DNA of 64,000 nt from an uncultured Verrucomicrobiae bacterium (lineage in GTDB: Bacteria > Verrucomicrobiota > Verrucomicrobiia > Limisphaerales > Palsa-1400): NCBI GenBank assembly GCA_963707025.1, contig CAVPOM010000004.1, positions 320,001 to 384,000 of the forward strand. Reading direction: 5' to 3'. The notes under the pieces were generated by a model. That model did no database searches. It worked only from the letters and a program-made list of their open reading frames with translations, and was not told where the DNA came from. The position numbers and the translations under genes were made by a program. Of the stretch, positions 11,229 to 60,879 are shown in pieces (the first letter of the stretch is position 1; each line of letters starts with the position of its first letter).

Positions 11229-11258
11229 AAACACTTTGATCTGGTTTGATTTGGCTTG
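11229..11258 (-). repeat. 3' half of the 10-bp tandem repeat interrupted by the intron
   Basis: Minus strand reads CAAGCCAAAT CAAACCAGAT CAAAG directly after the intron end. Confidence 0.8.
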
Positions 11259-13216
11259 GTAGAGTAGGCGAAGTGGAAGGAGGCGGATTGAACTGACCGC
11301 AGTTGTCAGTCTCGCGCTGCCACTTCGCCCCTCATCGAACCGAACGGACGGATTTCCCATATTCGGCTCTCCGAACTCATTCATCGGGCCGCCTTCCACT
11401 TCGCCGTGGTCGGCAGTTCATAGAGTCCATAACGCTGGTGCAACTGCTCGGGAACGTAGTGTTCCCACAGGCTGCGGCGGCAACCGTGTTTGCGCCACAG
11501 CCAGCGCCGAAAGCGGTTTTGGCTGTAGTGTTTCATCCGGTTCATCACCGAGACGCTGTTGCCGTAGTGGAAGTAGCCCGCCCATCCGCGCAAGACTTGG
11601 TTGACCTCTTTGACCACCTCCTGTATCGGACGCCCCTGCGTCCAGTGGTTGAGGATGCCGCCCAGTTTCTCGCGCAGGGCCCCCGGCTTTTCTGGCTGGG
11701 TTGAACGTGCAGGTAGCCGCGCCCTCCAAAGGACTTGCGCCAGGTCAGGTTGAAGCCCAGGAAGTTGATCCCTTCCTTGCGAATGTTCACAATTCGGGTT
11801 TTGACTTCGTTGAGGGTCAGCCCTTTGGCTCGAAGCCATTTCTTGAGCCGCGCTATCAGCCCTCCGCCGCACCCCGCCGCGCACGCGATGACAAAGTCAT
11901 CGGCGTAGCGCACCATGCGGGCTTGGCCGGAGGTTTTCTCGTTCACCCCGTGATCCAGCGGGTTGAGGTAGAGGTTGGCCAGCAGCGGCGAGATGACCCC
12001 GCCTTGCGGCGTGCCGCGCCGGTTGGGGATCACTCGCTTGGTGCCGTCCTGGTCTTCCTCCGCGACCGGGGCGCGCAGCCAGCTCTTGAGGAGCCGCAGC
12101 ACGCTGCCGTCGCTGACCCGCCGGGCCACGGCCTTCATCAGTTCCCGGTGCGGAATCGTGTCGAAATATTTCGTCAGGTCCGCGTCGATGATTTCCACGT
12201 AGCCTTGCTGCACTGCTTGTTGGATTTCCGCAATGGCTTGGTGTGCCCGGCGTTTGGGCCGAAAGCCGTAGGAGCGCGGATGAAAGTCCGCCTCCAAGAT
12301 CGGCATCAGCACCAGATACACCGCCGTTTGCACCACCCGGTCCTTGACCGTCGGGATGCCCAACGGCCGTTCCCCTCCGCTGCTCTTGGGAATCATCACC
12401 CGCCGCACCGGGCTGGCCCGATACGTCTTGGCTTTGAGTTCTGCTTGCAGGCGGTCGAGCCATTGCTGGCGCAGGGCCGGGTCGGCGGTGATGGACTCCA
12501 TACTCTGTCCGTCCACTCCCGCGGCCCCGCCGTTGCGCTGTTGCGCTGCCAAGGCGGTTTCGAGCACGTCCTTGCGCAGCAATTCCCCATACAGGCTCCA
12601 GAACCGATACTTCGGCTCTGCTTTGGCTTTCCGATAGAGCGCGATTTGAAGCTGCCGAACTTTCTCCGGGGTTGCTATCCGGGTCGCCCCGGCCATCCCC
12701 GCATCCTTCGCTTCGCCTCCACGCATTGAGCAAGTGTTCCCCCTTTGCGTTCGCTCGCGCAACTCCCGGCGGAAATCCGCCTGGAGCGCAAACAAGTCCA
12801 CGCTACTATGAGGAACTCCGACTTCTCCGGCAGGGCCGCTCGCCTGACTGGTCTTGCCAGCTTGCGCGGGCGGTTGGGCTGGCCGCCCGCCGCCGGAGTT
12901 CTCCCAGCTTACCTTGGTTGAACTTCCAGACGTGCCGTCCACGCCGACCCCGCCGGAGCGTTGAGAAGGCTCTGACTGTTGCCCTGCCTCCTCCCTGCGG
13001 CCTTCGCCGGTCAAACAGCGGCTCGGCTTGTCTCCGGTTCTAAACTTATCGAGGCTCATTGGATGTGGTTCATTTTCATTACGGCCCGTCTGTTCATCTC
13101 CCTCAGCTTCCAACCCCGCCTCGCGGCGGCGCTGTTGAGGTCGTGTTCCGTCGTGAACAGCCTAATTCGACGGGCGGGACTTTCACCCGCGTTCCAACCA
13201 ACTTCACTGGCGCAAC
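11259..13216 (-). mobile_element. Group II intron, copy 1 (1958 bp)
   Basis: Reverse complement of 55642-57600; begins GTTGCG, ends CTACTCTAC; domains V/VI present; removing it restores a perfect 10-bp repeat. Confidence 0.93.
11381..12696 (-). pseudogene. ltrA: Group II intron RT/maturase with a 1-nt deletion (G5 vs G6) at 11680-11684
   Basis: GIPTVKDR, GTPQGG, RYADD; frame shifts at QKSRG relative to copy 2. Confidence 0.85.
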
Positions 13217-13246
13217 ATTTGGCTTGATTTGGCTTGATTTGGTTTG
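13217..13246 (-). repeat. 5' half of the 10-bp tandem repeat (intron target, IBS1 side)
   Basis: Minus strand CAAACCAAAT CAAGCCAAAT CAAGCCAAAT immediately before the intron. Confidence 0.85.
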
Positions 13247-13327: not shown

Positions 13328-13412
13328 TTTGGAGTGTGCCGACAGGCTGGCACCGCCTTGCTTGCCGCAAATCGTTCCCGGCGCAAAAGCGGGAGCAAGC
13401 TCCCGCACTCCA
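13328..13412. repeat. GGAG-type REP-like inverted pair
   Basis: TTTGGAGTGTGCC ... GCGGGAGCAAGCTCCCGCACTCCAT, with an internal palindrome. Confidence 0.55.
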
Positions 13413-13437
13413 TAGCAACCGCCCTCATCACTATGTG

Positions 13438-13465
13438 AGATTAGCATTTAATCCAGTTTTGTCAA
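13438..13465 (-). promoter_or_regulatory. Putative sigma-70 promoter reading toward intron copy 1
   Basis: TTGACA-N16-TAATCT with TG just upstream of the -10, on the minus strand. Confidence 0.45.
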
Positions 13466-32161: not shown

Positions 32162-32336
32162 CCCCCTCTCTCTCCCCGCTTGCGGGGAGAGAGGCGGGCC
32201 GCCCAGCAGGTTGCGCACCCGGATGCCCCCCTCTCTCTCCCCGATTGCGGGGAGAGAGGCGGGCCGCCCAGCAGGTTGCGCACCCGGATGCCCCCCTCTC
32301 TCTCCCCGATTGCGGGGAGAGAGGCGGAGAGAGGGG
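32162..32336 (+). repeat. 65-bp tandem repeat (~2.6 copies), each with a CTCTCTCCCCG-N4-CGGGGAGAGAG hairpin
   Basis: Units start at 32162, 32227 and 32292. Confidence 0.85.
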
Positions 32337-32499
32337 TGGCCAGGCTCGTCGAACGCGTGGGACGAAAAATCTGGTCCCGCGCCCCGGGCCCGGCGTCTGC
32401 CCCCGCCGTGCGCCGGGATGTATTAGCTTCGATTATTTGTTTTTACATGCAAACATATAATTTGACGCCATACATTTTTTGTGGAATAAGACACAAAAA

Positions 32500-37725: not shown

Positions 37726-38685
37726 CTAAAAGTGATAACTCAGGATCACCTTGAACAGCGCCGAGGCCGCCAACTGGTTGCCCCGGAAGTCCTGGAAGAC
37801 GGGCAGTTCCACATCCGCATACAAACTCACCGGGTGCAGGTGGAACTCCATCCCGGGCGAGAGCATGATCCGCTGGTAGCCGGAGGCCGTCCCGCCGGCC
37901 GTGGCGTTGGCCCCGCTGTCGCTGGTCCTTTCCGAGGCGATGACTTGCGCCACCGGCGTGATCCGCATGCGCCCGAGCGACCAGCCGCTGTAGTAGAGGC
38001 CCGCCGCCGTGTCAATTTCCACCCCCGGCCGATAGTGGGCTTGCGTCAGCGTCGGCAGATCCAACAAGGCCTGCGCAAACCAGTTCACCTGGTTGTCCTT
38101 CGTCACCGCGCCGCGATGAAAGCCGCCCAGGAGCAGATCAGTGCTCCCGGTCCCGATTTCCGAGTCCCGGTCCACGTCGCCATAAGCATTGTTGTGCGAG
38201 AAACTCCCGGTCGGCAGCTTGAAACCAAAGGTCAGGCCGCTGGACAAATCCGGTGAAAACCCGGTGTAGATTCCCTCCAGCCGGATGTCCCCCAGTTGGC
38301 TCCAATGCTCCGAGGCAATGGGATTGCCCGGCGCGGCCGAGACGGTTTTGAAAACTCGATTATCATAAGGCACTTCGGCCTGGATTCCCCAACTGCGGTT
38401 GAACAGGTACTGAATTCCCGCCGTGAAAAAGTGCGTCCGGATTTCCTTGTCCGTATTATCCGCCGCCGGCGCCTGCGAAGTGCCGCTCCAATTGTGCTTC
38501 TGATCCATGAAATCATAATCCACAAACGCCATCCCCCCGGTCCCCTGGGGAAACATCGAACTGGTCGCCACGTCGAACACGCCGCAGCCGCAGGCGCAGC
38601 CGCGGGCCGCGCCCGGCGCCAGCCCCAGGGCCGCCAGCGCGATGCAAATCGCCCGCTCCAAAATCCTTTTCGGCTTCATATTCAT
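37726..38685 (-). CDS. Putative outer-membrane channel with N-terminal CACGC motif
   Basis: Signal peptide then CACGC; LGDI, GFKLPTG, GTGSTD; C-terminal YHF. Confidence 0.7.
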   Translation of the reverse strand: MNMKPKRILERAICIALAALGLAPGAARGCACGCGVFDVATSSMFPQGTGGMAFVDYDFMDQKHNWSGTSQAPAADNTDKEIRTHFFTAGIQYLFNRSWGIQAEVPYDNRVFKTVSAAPGNPIASEHWSQLGDIRLEGIYTGFSPDLSSGLTFGFKLPTGSFSHNNAYGDVDRDSEIGTGSTDLLLGGFHRGAVTKDNQVNWFAQALLDLPTLTQAHYRPGVEIDTAAGLYYSGWSLGRMRITPVAQVIASERTSDSGANATAGGTASGYQRIMLSPGMEFHLHPVSLYADVELPVFQDFRGNQLAASALFKVILSYHF

Positions 38686-38725
38686 AATTCTAATCCTAAT
38701 CTTAATCCTAATCTCATTCTTATCT
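38685..38725 (+). repeat. (TAATCY)n hexamer array
   Basis: TAATTC TAATCC TAATCT TAATCC TAATCT CATTCT. Confidence 0.8.
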
Positions 38726-38784
38726 TCAACCACATTCGTGATTGATCAGCCCCCGCTTCGTGGCATGATAACTTTCATTCGCTC

Positions 38785-49479: not shown

Positions 49480-49575
49480 CCTACCAACATGTTCCCACAT
49501 CCCTGAGAATTCGCAACACCGCGCAAGGGACTTCTCCTCCCCCGGGTGCATCTCACTTTACGGGGTATCCTCCGC

Positions 49576-49611
49576 TGATCTTAATCTTAATCTTAATCCT
49601 AATCTTAATCT
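49576..49611 (+). repeat. (TAATCY)n hexamer array
   Basis: TGATCT TAATCT TAATCT TAATCC TAATCT TAATCT. Confidence 0.85.
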
Positions 49612-49641
49612 CCTTCGTGAAGTGACATGCGCCATCCCCCC

Positions 49642-54320: not shown

Positions 54321-54603
54321 ACGCAATCAAAACGCCAATCAGAAACGCGCACTCGTACCAGCTCGCTTCCATCTGCGCAACAAAGACGGGCCTCGTCATC
54401 CAACCTGGTCCTATATTCGTTCGGTACCGTCACTTACCTTACCATAATCCATCCCCAAAAGCAACGAAAAAAGACCGTTAAAAAATCGCGCTATTTGAAA
54501 AATCCATTGACACTATGCTCATTTAGTTTATTCTGTGGACGGGCTGGCGATCCACTCGTCCGGCGGAAAACAACACGACAGGTTATGGTTTAAGGAGGAT
54601 GAT

Positions 54604-57600
54604 ATGAGGAATGGCAAAATTGCAAAACTGCTCTCCACCGTCCGGGATGAGCTCAATGTGCGCATGGACAACGGCGAAAACGGCGGAAAACTTCTGCGCT
54701 GGCTCAACGGACTTCCTGAAGTCAAGGCGACGCTCCAGGCCAGCTTTGGCGGCCAGCCCGTCAGCAAGCAAAATCTCTGCGAATGGCGCCAGGGCGGCTT
54801 CCGCGAATGGCAGCTTCATTACCAATGGATTCATCAGGCTTATGAACTCAACCGGCTCACCACCGACATGGAGCAAGTGCTGGATGCGCCCATGCTGGCC
54901 GGCGACATGGCCAAACTGCTGGCTGTCCGCTACGCCGCCCTCCTCAACACCTGGGATGGCGAGGCGGACCCGAAATTCGAGCGCGGCCTCCGCCTGCTGC
55001 GCGGCCTGGGCCAGGACATCGCCTTGCTGCAAAGGACCTTGCATCGCTCCAGCCTCCAGGAAATTGCCTCCGACCAGCATTTTGAGGACGACTGCAACAA
55101 GAGAAGGGAGAAAATAAGGGGGATGGCCATGGCCCCCATTTTGGCCAGGATGGAACAGAACAACCTGGAAAGGCTGTTTGGCAACTATGTGGACGAAGCG
55201 GCGGCCAGACGGCTCGCCGAATTTGTCACCGCCATCAAATTTAACCTGCCGCTGCCCAAAACGCCCCGACCGGAGCCGCCCGGTCAAACCTCCCGGTCAA
55301 ACCCAAAGGCCCCGGCCGCCACTGTAGCCGCGGTCTGCGACCGTCGCACTCGTCGAACCTCCCGGTCAACCCCGGCGCCCGCGCCGGTTGTAGCGGCGGT
55401 CTGTGACCGTCGCACTCCTCAAACCTCCCGGTCAAACCCGGCGCCGGCGCGGGTTGTAGCGGCGGTCTGTGACCGCCGCACTCGTCAAACCTCCCGGTCA
55501 AACCCGGCGCCATCGGCCCAGCCACTCAACCCCTCTCAGCCCCCGCCAGCGCCGCCCGGTCAAACTGCTTTGCCCCCGGCTGCCCGGCCGGCTGTGCCCG
55601 TCACGGCCGCCGAAGAGCCGCCCGGTCAAACCGGGTCAAACGTTGCGCCAGTGAAGTTGGTTGGAACGCGGGTGAAAGTCCCGCCCGTCGAATTAGGCTG
55701 TTCACGACGGAACACGACCTCAACAGCGCCGCCGCGAGGCGGGGTTGGAAGCTGAGGGAGATGAACAGACGGGCCGTAATGAAAATGAACCACATCCAAT
55801 GAGCCTCGATAAGTTTAGAACCGGAGACAAGCCGAGCCGCTGTTTGACCGGCGAAGGCCGCAGGGAGGAGGCAGGGCAACAGTCAGAGCCTTCTCAACGC
55901 TCCGGCGGGGTCGGCGTGGACGGCACGTCTGGAAGTTCAACCAAGGTAAGCTGGGAGAACTCCGGCGGCGGGCGGCCAGCCCAACCGCCCGCGCAAGCTG
56001 GCAAGACCAGTCAGGCGAGCGGCCCTGCCGGAGAAGTCGGAGTTCCTCATAGTAGCGTGGACTTGTTTGCGCTCCAGGCGGATTTCCGCCGGGAGTTGCG
56101 CGAGCGAACGCAAAGGGGGAACACTTGCTCAATGCGTGGAGGCGAAGCGAAGGATGCGGGGATGGCCGGGGCGACCCGGATAGCAACCCCGGAGAAAGTT
56201 CGGCAGCTTCAAATCGCGCTCTATCGGAAAGCCAAAGCAGAGCCGAAGTATCGGTTCTGGAGCCTGTATGGGGAATTGCTGCGCAAGGACGTGCTCGAAA
56301 CCGCCTTGGCAGCGCAACAGCGCAACGGCGGGGCCGCGGGAGTGGACGGACAGAGTATGGAGTCCATCACCGCCGACCCGGCCCTGCGCCAGCAATGGCT
56401 CGACCGCCTGCAAGCAGAACTCAAAGCCAAGACGTATCGGGCCAGCCCGGTGCGGCGGGTGATGATTCCCAAGAGCAGCGGAGGGGAACGGCCGTTGGGC
56501 ATCCCGACGGTCAAGGACCGGGTGGTGCAAACGGCGGTGTATCTGGTGCTGATGCCGATCTTGGAGGCGGACTTTCATCCGCGCTCCTACGGCTTTCGGC
56601 CCAAACGCCGGGCACACCAAGCCATTGCGGAAATCCAACAAGCAGTGCAGCAAGGCTACGTGGAAATCATCAACGCGGACCTGACGAAATATTTCGACAC
56701 GATTCCGCACCGGGAACTGATGAAGGCCGTGGCCCGGCGGGTCAGCGACGGCAGCGTGCTGCGGCTCCTCAAGAGCTGGCTGCGCGCCCCGGTCGCGGAG
56801 GAAGACCAGGACGGCACCAAGCGAGTGATCCCCAACCGGCGCGGCACGCCGCAAGGCGGGGTCATCTCGCCGCTGCTGGCCAACCTCTACCTCAACCCGC
56901 TGGATCACGGGGTGAACGAGAAAACCTCCGGCCAAGCCCGCATGGTGCGCTACGCCGATGACTTTGTCATCGCGTGCGCGGCGGGGTGCGGCGGAGGGCT
57001 GATAGCGCGGCTCAAGAAATGGCTTCGAGCCAAAGGGCTGACCCTCAACGAAGTCAAAACCCGAATTGTGAACATTCGCAAGGAAGGGATCAACTTCCTG
57101 GGCTTCAACCTGACCTGGCGCAAGTCCTTTGGAGGGCGCGGCTACCTGCACGTTCAACCCAGCCAGAAAAGCCGGGGGGCCCTGCGCGAGAAACTGGGCG
57201 GCATCCTCAACCACTGGACGCAGGGGCGTCCGATACAGGAGGTGGTCAAAGAGGTCAACCAAGTCTTGCGCGGATGGGCGGGCTACTTCCACTACGGCAA
57301 CAGCGTCTCGGTGATGAACCGGATGAAACACTACAGCCAAAACCGCTTTCGGCGCTGGCTGTGGCGCAAACACGGTTGCCGCCGCAGCCTGTGGGAACAC
57401 TACGTTCCCGAGCAGTTGCACCAGCGTTATGGACTCTATGAACTGCCGACCACGGCGAAGTGGAAGGCGGCCCGATGAATGAGTTCGGAGAGCCGAATAT
57501 GGGAAATCCGTCCGTTCGGTTCGATGAGGGGCGAAGTGGCAGCGCGAGACTGACAACTGCGGTCAGTTCAATCCGCCTCCTTCCACTTCGCCTACTCTAC

Positions 57601-57648
57601 CAGAAAAGCCGGTTTGACTTGGGCACGACCCCGCCCCTCCACCCGTGA
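54604..57648 (+). CDS. Intron-interrupted hypothetical protein (exons 54604-55641 and 57601-57648) with putative HTH N-terminus and repeat tail
   Basis: Open frame up to the intron; splicing joins ..GQTGSN to QKSRFDLGTTPPLHP* in frame. Confidence 0.7.
55283..55511 (+). repeat. 66-69-bp in-frame tandem repeat (~3.4 units) with a GTAG-REP palindrome and paired GTCAAAC motifs
   Basis: Units start at 55283, 55352, 55418 and 55484. Confidence 0.85.
55642..57600 (+). mobile_element. Group II intron, copy 2 (1959 bp)
   Basis: GTTGCG start; EBS1-like loop 55840-55848; domain V at 57490-57522 with AGC triad; domain VI with bulged A at -7; ends CTCTAC. Confidence 0.95.
56162..57478 (+). CDS. ltrA: Group II intron reverse transcriptase/maturase without endonuclease domain
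   Basis: AAGVDG, RPLGIPTVKDR, SYGFRP, ADLTKYFD, GTPQGG, RYADD, FLGF, X domain LRGWAGYF. Confidence 0.95.
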   Translation: MAGATRIATPEKVRQLQIALYRKAKAEPKYRFWSLYGELLRKDVLETALAAQQRNGGAAGVDGQSMESITADPALRQQWLDRLQAELKAKTYRASPVRRVMIPKSSGGERPLGIPTVKDRVVQTAVYLVLMPILEADFHPRSYGFRPKRRAHQAIAEIQQAVQQGYVEIINADLTKYFDTIPHRELMKAVARRVSDGSVLRLLKSWLRAPVAEEDQDGTKRVIPNRRGTPQGGVISPLLANLYLNPLDHGVNEKTSGQARMVRYADDFVIACAAGCGGGLIARLKKWLRAKGLTLNEVKTRIVNIRKEGINFLGFNLTWRKSFGGRGYLHVQPSQKSRGALREKLGGILNHWTQGRPIQEVVKEVNQVLRGWAGYFHYGNSVSVMNRMKHYSQNRFRRWLWRKHGCRRSLWEHYVPEQLHQRYGLYELPTTAKWKAAR

Positions 57649-57657
57649 GCGTTGTCC

Positions 57658-57693
57658 CATTCCTAATCTTAATCCTAATCTTAATCCTAATCT
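57658..57693 (+). repeat. (TAATCY)n hexamer array
   Basis: CATTCC TAATCT TAATCC TAATCT TAATCC TAATCT. Confidence 0.85.
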
Positions 57694-57772
57694 CCTCCTG
57701 TCGGTTTGAACACGCTCGTTCGGCCCGGAACCGCTCGACTTGCTTTCGACCCCTTCCTAACATCCGCACGCA

Positions 57773-60799: not shown

Positions 60800-60812
60800 T
60801 CGGCAGTTCCAC

Positions 60813-60848
60813 CATTCTTAATCCTAATCTTAATCTTAATCTAAATCC
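60813..60848 (+). repeat. (TAATCY)n hexamer array
   Basis: CATTCT TAATCC TAATCT TAATCT TAATCT AAATCC. Confidence 0.85.
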
Positions 60849-60879
60849 CAAGCCTCATGAACTCCGTTTTGTCATTTAT

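Follow-up and report, generated by a model that had tools for sequence, protein, structure and literature searches.

The 64,000-nt stretch of DNA analyzed here (hereafter the window; positions 320,001 to 384,000 of contig CAVPOM010000004.1, part of the 6.96-Mb, 18-contig assembly of an uncultured Verrucomicrobiae bacterium, labelled G000) carries two copies of a group II intron on opposite strands, at 55642-57600 (+) and 11259-13216 (-). Analysis of the intron copies and their junctions, of the covariation between exon-binding sites (EBS) and intron-binding sites (IBS), and of the enrichment and distribution of short tandem arrays makes it very probable that an active or very recently active intron homes here into intergenic arrays with a 10-bp period by EBS1 and EBS2 pairing. 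EBS1 (GUUUGAC, in a terminal loop at 55842-55848) would pair with GTCAAAC, the final 7 nt of a repeat unit, and the short EBS2 (GUUU, 55813-55816) with the AAAC of the preceding unit, at positions -14 to -11 relative to the insertion site, the two exon sites being split by a 3-nt linker. Because both exon-binding sites read one word, a good target would be a pair of units with a spacing of exactly 10 nt and a C or CA after them, and arrays of such units upstream of many unrelated genes would offer dozens of sites that are harmless and almost the same. In sister genomes, related introns have changed EBS1 and EBS2 jointly to fit arrays with other units. The recognition is the known IIB-type EBS/IBS rule applied to a repeat and not a new mechanism; what is new is the niche and the tuning of both binding sites to one repeated word, retuned across array families.

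Intron copies and the sites that they occupy

The intron boundaries were set by comparison of 16 copies in the genome and by empty paralogous sites. The two copies in the window are identical except for two substitutions and one base in a run of G. In the plus-strand copy, the Rfam model RF02005 (domains I-IV) matches positions 55675-55920 over its full length (1-225) with 62.2 bits (gathering score 49), and RF00029 (domains V and VI) matches 57488-57600 with 42.6 bits (gathering score 40); the minus-strand copy gives mirror matches to both models. The intron ends in ...CUAC at the 3' side, and the 5' boundary in the subclade that includes the window copies and the related loci L018-L022 is GUUGCG, not the usual GUGYG. 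The distant relatives L023 and L029 start with GUGCG, relative to which the GUUGCG of the window clade has one extra U. The features of the two copies are as follows, with RT standing for reverse transcriptase and ORF for open reading frame.

11239..11258, minus strand: 3' exon of copy 1, CAAGCCAAAT CAAACCAGAT
11259..13216, minus strand: group II intron copy 1, 1958 nt, G-run one base shorter, RT frameshift with a stop at amino acid 383
13217..13246, minus strand: 5' exon of copy 1, CAAACCAAAT CAAGCCAAAT CAAGCCAAAT
55622..55641, plus strand: 5' exon of copy 2, two 10-bp units, CCGGTCAAAC CGGGTCAAAC
55628..55631, plus strand: IBS2, AAAC, positions -14 to -11 (pairs with EBS2; covariation)
55635..55641, plus strand: IBS1, GTCAAAC, positions -7 to -1
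55642..57600, plus strand: group II intron copy 2, 1959 nt, 5' GUUGCG...CUCUAC 3', intact RT (16-copy comparison, empty sites, Rfam)
55813..55816, plus strand: EBS2, GUUU, in the 5' strand of an internal loop between two distal helices of domain I (unpaired in the RF02005 consensus; covariation)
55836..55852, plus strand: EBS1 hairpin, GCCG[CUGUUUGAC]CGGC, with EBS1 at 55842-55848 (RF02005 alignment, covariation)
56162..57478, plus strand: RT/maturase ORF, 438 amino acids, without an endonuclease domain (TIGR04416, RVT_1, GIIM)
57488..57600, plus strand: domains V and VI (RF00029, 42.6 bits)
57601..57602, plus strand: 3' exon of copy 2, CA (C at +1 in 16 of 16 copies, A at +2 in 15 of 16)
57609..57619, plus strand: inverted unit CCGGTTTGACT, 8 nt 3' of the insertion site, where other sites have AACCTTGACC

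All that the initial annotation of the window had read from the sequence proved correct. Direct inspection of the junctions gave CCGGTCAAAC CGGGTCAAAC/GTTGCG...CTCTAC/CAG for copy 2 and CAAACCAAAT CAAGCCAAAT CAAGCCAAAT/intron/CAAGCCAAAT CAAACCAGAT for copy 1, as described there, and the final 18 exon nucleotides of the two sites indeed differ by transitions only, the 19th nucleotide back being a transversion. The hairpin GCCG[CTGTTTGAC]CGGC lies at 55836-55852, and the plus strand of 55283-55641 contains eight GTCAAAC words, with the 10-bp spacing found in the last pair alone and 13 bp in the other close pairs. In the entire window, GTCAAAC has 20 matches versus 6.2 expected.

The ORF in domain IV encodes a group II RT/maturase of 438 amino acids (TIGR04416, 382 bits versus a cut-off of 300) in which the only Pfam families are RVT_1 and GIIM. 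The protein stops 32 residues past the GIIM match, and no DNA-binding/endonuclease (HNH) region follows domain X, in agreement with the earlier description of the intron as endonuclease-less. The G-run (window positions 57169-57174) is 6 bases long in 7 copies. In the other 9 it has 5 bases, and at this length the RT frame is shifted within domain X, with a stop at amino acid 383, so that an intact 438-amino-acid RT is encoded by 7 of the 16 copies.

All 16 copies are full-length and near-identical, with 7 variable positions altogether and base-exact junctions. The 5' neighbour is GTCAAAC in 15 of them and GCCAAAT in one (window copy 1), whereas the 3' neighbour is C in all 16 and CA in 15. 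Fifteen copies reside within 10-bp-period arrays, 14 in (GGTCAAACC)n and one in (CAAGCCAAAT)n, and the word located 10 bp upstream of the occupied site is an exact GTCAAAC in 12 copies and GTCAAAG in 2. Insertions occurring at sites without periodicity, which the initial annotation had regarded as contradicting its proposal, amount among these 16 to the single copy on contig C11, which has no repeat at its site. Within an array, the intron is nearly always inserted at the last unit, ahead of a T-rich spacer and the inverted unit. Outside the repeat modules the flanks of the copies are not paralogous, and the downstream genes are diverse. No replication-strand bias emerged from GC skew, which is noisy around the 16 copies (positive on the intron strand in 9 of 16) and without clear pattern contig-wide. 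A second, distant RT-like match (G000:C15:111169-111571, locus L017; 66 % identity over 400 nt) probably represents a further kind of group II intron or RT in this genome.

To the extent that several sites show extended similarity upstream or downstream, for example three that share CAAGGTGTTGCTGAGCCATT... upstream, the copies might owe their spread to duplication or recombination of segments flanked by arrays instead of retrohoming to specific sites. This origin is highly improbable given that the introns are >99.6 % identical while the flanks that they share have visibly diverged, that junctions are exact to the base in all copies, that downstream ORFs belong to unrelated families, and that empty paralogous sites exist.

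We then counted potential sites in the genome after in silico removal of the introns. The intron-less genome contains 1427 GTCAAAC sites compared to approximately 593 expected from base composition, and their occupancy is distributed as follows.

Exact unit 10 bp upstream of GTCAAAC: 39 sites, 12 occupied
Exact unit 9 bp upstream of GTCAAAC: 17 sites, 0 occupied
GTCAAAC with no unit within 33 bp: 1353 sites, 1 occupied
GTCAAAC followed by CA, with AAAC at -14 to -11: 31 sites, 11 occupied
GTCAAAC followed by CA, without AAAC at -14 to -11: 135 sites, 3 occupied
GTCAAAC without a following CA: 1261 sites, 1 occupied

The enrichment at arrays that the initial annotation had proposed to test is seen in these counts, with 12 of 39 sites occupied at 10-bp spacing as opposed to 1 of 1353 isolated ones. 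Over all sites, the difference between spacings of 10 and 9 bp (12/39 versus 0/17) has p = 0.011.

Exon-binding sites and their covariation in related introns

In the RF02005 alignment, the 9-nt loop that contains GUUUGAC belongs to a conserved hairpin, which lies towards the 3' end of domain I and within two stacked helices. The 5' strands of the two helices are divided by a stretch that is unpaired in the model consensus, AUAAGUUUAGAA, which holds EBS2. The 4-nt EBS2 (GUUU) pairs with the AAAC of the previous unit at -14 to -11, and the four 5' nucleotides of EBS1 pair with positions -4 to -1, which also read AAAC, with a 3-nt linker between the exon sites. Accordingly, both exon-binding sites find their partner in a doublet of units with 10-nt spacing, which accounts for the 10-bp phase. 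Of the helical-period niche that had been proposed for the intron, the use of arrays stands, but sensing of the helix is unneeded: the phase follows from the pairing of EBS2 with a word situated exactly 10 nt before the corresponding one in IBS1.

Relatives were gathered by RT similarity and by DNA searches of other Verrucomicrobiae genomes. Covariation was counted on 23 rows from six genomes, each with 20 exon and 262 intron nucleotides; these are 23 of 26 junction rows, the other three being further G000 sites with the same pattern. Across these rows, 94.8 % of the 345 cells are paired (EBS1-IBS1, 95 %; EBS2-IBS2, 89 %; hairpin stem, 100 %), compared to 82.7 % in shuffles, none of 500 of which reached the observed value, and to 25-42 % when the partner was slid by 1-3 columns. 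Double-sided changes occur in all 7 EBS1-IBS1 pairs and all 4 EBS2-IBS2 pairs; in the hairpin stem, 3 of 4 pairs show them. Since the rows come from related introns, and the structure was itself derived from them, we place the weight on the slid control and on the count of double changes. The identification of the GUUUGAC loop as EBS1 is thus upheld: it lies in the hairpin modelled by RF02005 and co-varies with the last 7 exon nucleotides in relatives. The pairings are:

This genome: EBS1/IBS1 GUUUGAC/GUCAAAC; EBS2/IBS2 GUUU/AAAC
G002: EBS1/IBS1 GUUUGAU/AUCAAAC; EBS2/IBS2 GUUU/AAAC
G001: EBS1/IBS1 GUUUGAU or GGUUGAU/AUCAAAC or AUCAAGC; EBS2/IBS2 CUUU/AAAG or AAGG
G003: EBS1/IBS1 GUGUGAC/GUCGCAC; EBS2/IBS2 GUGC/GCAC
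G007, ORF-less copy: EBS1/IBS1 poorly matched (5/7); EBS2/IBS2 GCUU/AAGC
L022 (more distant relative): EBS1/IBS1 CUGCCUG/CGGGCAG; EBS2/IBS2 CGGCA/UGCCG
L023-L027 (more distant relatives): EBS1/IBS1 ACCCGAA/UUCGGGU; EBS2/IBS2 CCGAAAU/AUUUCGG
L029 (more distant relative): EBS1/IBS1 CCAAGGA/UCCUUGG; EBS2/IBS2 GCAAA/UUUGC

The outer helices show compensation as well, from CCGGAG/CUCCGG to CCAGAG/CUCUGG in L022 and from GCCUCG/CGGGGU to GCUCCG/CGGAGU in L023.

The insertion sites of the relatives also consist mostly of repeats. The units at their junctions are GTCAAAGTGA...ATCAAAC in G001, AAATCAAGS in G001 and G007, GGTCGCACC in G003, GGTCAAGGTC in G020 (a 452-nt ORF-less copy) and four units of ATAATCGTGC in G008 (an intron fragment). 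In a contig from a wetland RNA library, the 5' end of a related intron follows CCAATCAAGG CCAATCAAGG CCAATTAAGG, and other contigs of the same run contain the EBS1 CCUUAAU, the exact complement of the ATTAAGG at that junction. A soil RNA-library contig leads from the 3' end of the intron to an intron 5' end with only TAAATCAAGT in between, so two introns lie there at a distance of one unit; arrays provide several sites in a row, so that such head-to-tail pairs are allowed. Contigs from RNA libraries are not taken as proof of transcription. Altogether, approximately 29-30 of the 34 readable 5' junctions lie in arrays of at least two units (copy L114 of G001, at a contig end, has no readable flank), the non-array junctions being L098, L100 (identical to L022), L115 and the C11 copy. 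Dispersed 10-bp-period arrays, suggested as the insertion site from two copies, therefore hold for 15 of the 16 copies in this genome and for most junctions in relatives.

Among the more distant relatives, one Verrucomicrobiae chromosome carries five copies of a 57 %-related intron (L023-L027), all located after TTTCGGAKTTCGGGT, a direct repeat with 8-bp spacing; the EBS2 (CCGAAAU) and EBS1 (ACCCGAA) of these copies are again similar words. In addition, ORF-less deletion derivatives (691 nt, 452 nt and others) were observed in G007 (L127), G020 (L122), G008 (L120/L136) and G003 (L139/L111); these retain the 5' part of domain I along with domains V and VI, and some are found in arrays.

Several observations weigh against homing by EBS1/EBS2 pairing into arrays as set out above. 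When only sites followed by CA are considered, the contrast between 10-bp and 9-bp spacing (11/29 versus 0/4) is not significant (p = 0.28), so the spacing rule is unproven from the genome alone. Furthermore, 29 of the 31 IBS2-bearing sites are arrays, which makes pairing and "being an array" statistically inseparable in this genome. EBS2 comprises just 4 nt, two occupied sites have AAAG instead of AAAC, and the C11 site lacks IBS2, so that IBS2 helps insertion but is not obligatory. A single-sequence fold of 55780-55925 missed the Rfam consensus and did as well as shuffled sequences (z = 0.08), and the EBS structure accordingly relies on the covariance-model alignment together with covariation. 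The position of the hairpin is no more than consistent with Id3, where the initial annotation expected EBS1, and the name Id3 itself does not come from a tool result. The G-run frameshift in 9 of the 16 copies may stem from genuine decay or from a homopolymer error in the assembly. Finally, no contig with spliced exons or an empty allele across 55642-57600 was recovered from two DNA and two RNA public runs, so that splicing and current mobility are what we infer rather than observe; the DNA contig of run X1 that spans the intron is a collapsed repeat because its flanks belong to other copies.

Part of this evidence would fit a different explanation, namely that the intron particle senses the periodic array itself, through a protein contact, the shape of the DNA over a helical turn or an array-bound host protein, and that the EBS2 match is incidental. 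The coincidence of IBS2-bearing sites with arrays points this way, as do the two occupied sites with imperfect IBS2 that are still in arrays, the preference for the last unit before the T-rich spacer and inverted unit, and the A at +2 that is kept in 15 of 16 copies, a position read by the RmInt2 protein (PMC4615759). Nevertheless, this explanation appears unlikely because EBS2 changes together with the word at -14 to -11 in relatives (with double-sided changes in 4 of 4 pairs and collapse of the slid controls), the intron protein has no DNA-binding or endonuclease extension, and there are non-array copies with a good IBS1, C11 in this genome and L098 and L100 in relatives. Under homing by EBS1/EBS2 pairing, the intron presumably retrohomes as other endonuclease-less introns do, through reverse splicing into DNA and priming at the replication fork; splicing would occur from read-through or leader transcripts, and the insertions would be harmless.

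The 10-bp arrays as features of the host genome

Allowing one mismatch per unit and a spacing of 9-11 bp, we identified 74 chains of at least two units in the genome. Half of these (37 of 74) have a canonical organization, (GGTCAAACC)n-CAT-T-rich spacer-AACCTTGACC, in which the last element is an inverted unit. The genes downstream were checked for 34 of the 37 canonical arrays (two at contig ends and the window's own site were left out): the first Pfam-supported gene has the orientation of the array in 27 cases and the opposite one in 6, and is absent in one. The genes located 3' of the arrays are unrelated to each other and include those for glycosidases, tRNA/rRNA modification enzymes, HypF, Obg and PPDK, among others.

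The doublet GTCAAACNNNGTCAAAC is present in 12 of the 24 further genomes that represent the family, whereas the other families of the order, represented by 16 genomes, have none, with almost nothing detected in a reversed-pattern control. Intron DNA was found in 9 of the 24 other family genomes. The possibility that the arrays are made by the intron was ruled out: the G027 genome (95 % complete) has 30 doublets and no intron match, and many other families of 10-bp arrays are intron-free. Thus, the arrays belong to the host: they lie between genes and mostly share the orientation of the diverse genes that follow them. A conserved gene upstream of the arrays was also considered and dropped because the clustered "ORFs" (19 in one group) look like translated non-coding repeat modules.

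The genome has a rich set of short tandem repeats between its genes. Using Tandem Repeats Finder with a low threshold, we detected 511 period-10 arrays of many unit families and 630 period-6 arrays; the period-10 units include AACGGGGTGT (x20), AATTACGCCC (x17), AACGGCATGT (x14) and AAACTAGGTG (x13), among others. In the window, three 66-bp tandem repeats occupy 55308-55511, between the upstream ORF and the intron site, each comprising a hairpin, GCGGCGGTC-TGT-GACCGCCGC, and the word GGTCAAAC. The long ORF at 54535-55755 runs through these repeats and is probably not coding there, and the 346-amino-acid ORF part preceding copy 2 matches no Pfam family. A further set of three tandem repeats, 65 bp long and with a CCCCTCTCTCTCCCCG...CGGGGAGAGAGG hairpin, is found at 32162-32356, and arrays of the hexamer TAATCY (with a 12-nt double period) lie just upstream of genes at 38668-38732, 49565-49629, 57647-57699 and 60802-60866. 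A module resembling repetitive extragenic palindromes (REPs) at 13380-13440 (-), which translates as ..ECGSLLPL.. (GAGTGCGGGAGCTTGCTCCCGC...), recurs upstream of many arrays. On contigs C7, C13 and C18, a conserved module of ~110 bp lies between two GGTCAAAC arrays at no fewer than five loci and contains a short frame, MWKTLTCKVLLSHLDVIEAEAVKPGQT.., which enters the second array, together with a GAGGGATAAAAATG that resembles a Shine-Dalgarno sequence.

Beyond this genome, the balance of the evidence tilts slightly towards a verrucomicrobial intron lineage for which tandem arrays are a dedicated niche, with EBS1 and EBS2 that converged on one word, act as a 10-nt ruler over two units, and are retuned together between array families. 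If so, arrays would join terminators/attC sites and insertion sequence (IS) elements as a third generic "safe harbour" of group II introns in bacteria. Should the arrays be direct repeats that bind a regulator, each insertion would shift them 2 kb from the promoter region downstream. The intron offers a clear, countable example of how an endonuclease-less element may multiply without harm by matching both exon-binding sites to a repeated word, the sister genomes supply a natural compensatory series for EBS1 and EBS2, and in an intron this compact (1.96 kb) the two-site rule is open to testing and retargeting. The findings also draw attention to the arrays themselves, 10-bp-period repeat families that precede many genes of these soil bacteria.

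Relationship to known group II introns

The best named relative is Ni.ha.I1 from plasmid 1 of Nitrobacter hamburgensis, with 45 % amino acid identity over residues 4-404; the match coordinates fall within the intron listed under this name, as "g3, Bacterial F", in Table S2 of Toro and Martinez-Abarca (2013). Ni.ha.I1 has a similar size (1911 nt), encodes only RT and domain X, and possesses a homologous EBS1 hairpin that pairs with its own exon (UUUUGC/GCAAGA, one wobble). Unlike the window intron, however, it resides inside an IS4 transposase gene, its domain I aligns poorly in the 5' part, and its RT belongs to a different clade. In a quick tree of 68 RTs, with a single g1 and a single class D reference and no g2, g4, C or E references, the window RT falls in a Verrucomicrobiota-only clade of 12 rows with an SH-aLRT (Shimodaira-Hasegawa-like approximate likelihood ratio test) support of 99. 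With these few references, this clade joins a 19-row group that includes Ni.ha.I1 with a support of 93, below 95, and the group is placed apart from the single g1 and class D references. As for class D, L177 falls outside, at a split with a support of 98, in a comparison with one reference and a long branch. Class F membership of the window intron is thus probable.

Comparison with IIC introns is pertinent because the last unit and the downstream inverted unit make up an inverted repeat, and the CCCGG-TCAAA-CCGGG of copy 2 could form a 5-bp hairpin just upstream of the intron, as would suit a IIC-type intron that recognizes a DNA stem-loop. IIC introns read a stem-loop and an IBS1 of 3-4 nt, and have no EBS2. 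The window intron has a 7-nt IBS1 and an IBS2 paired with EBS2, no stem-loop is conserved among the 16 sites (compare CAGGTCAAACCAGG and CTGGTCAAACTTGG), the insertion lies within the inverted repeat and not past it, and the named intron that matches best belongs to class F. A IIC-type mode of recognition is therefore scarcely credible, and the distinction from IIC introns drawn in the initial annotation holds. What the window intron has in common with IIC introns at terminators and attC sites is multiplication of an endonuclease-less intron via an abundant non-coding motif, which is a structured one in the case of IIC (PMC1702495).

Dispersed intergenic repeats also serve as sites for IS elements and for a Pseudomonas putida group II intron, 2 of the 9 copies of which are associated with REPs (Tobes and Pareja; PMC1525189). 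REPs differ from the 10-bp arrays in being palindromes, and the passage cited describes a partial association with no pairing rule. In the open-licence papers searched, we found no description of a group II intron homing into short tandem arrays.

Close parallels in behaviour are offered by the endonuclease-less Sinorhizobium introns RmInt1, RmInt2 and Sr.md.I1 (class D, IIB3; PMC4615759). Their targets, as described there, are single sites in IS elements and not arrays, EBS1 and EBS2 read different words, and the window RT is not of class D, being apart from the one class D reference of the tree. Like the window intron, however, they encode an RT-maturase alone, read the target through EBS1, EBS2 and EBS3 with a short IBS1-IBS2 linker, and attain many copies in a repeated harmless site, RmInt2 making use of both inverted repeats of an IS element; for RmInt2, a 2-nt linker, tolerance of a 4-bp EBS2 pairing and selection of A at +2 have been reported (PMC4615759). 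Against this background, the intron described here is a IIB-like, class F-related, endonuclease-less lineage specialized in tandem arrays.

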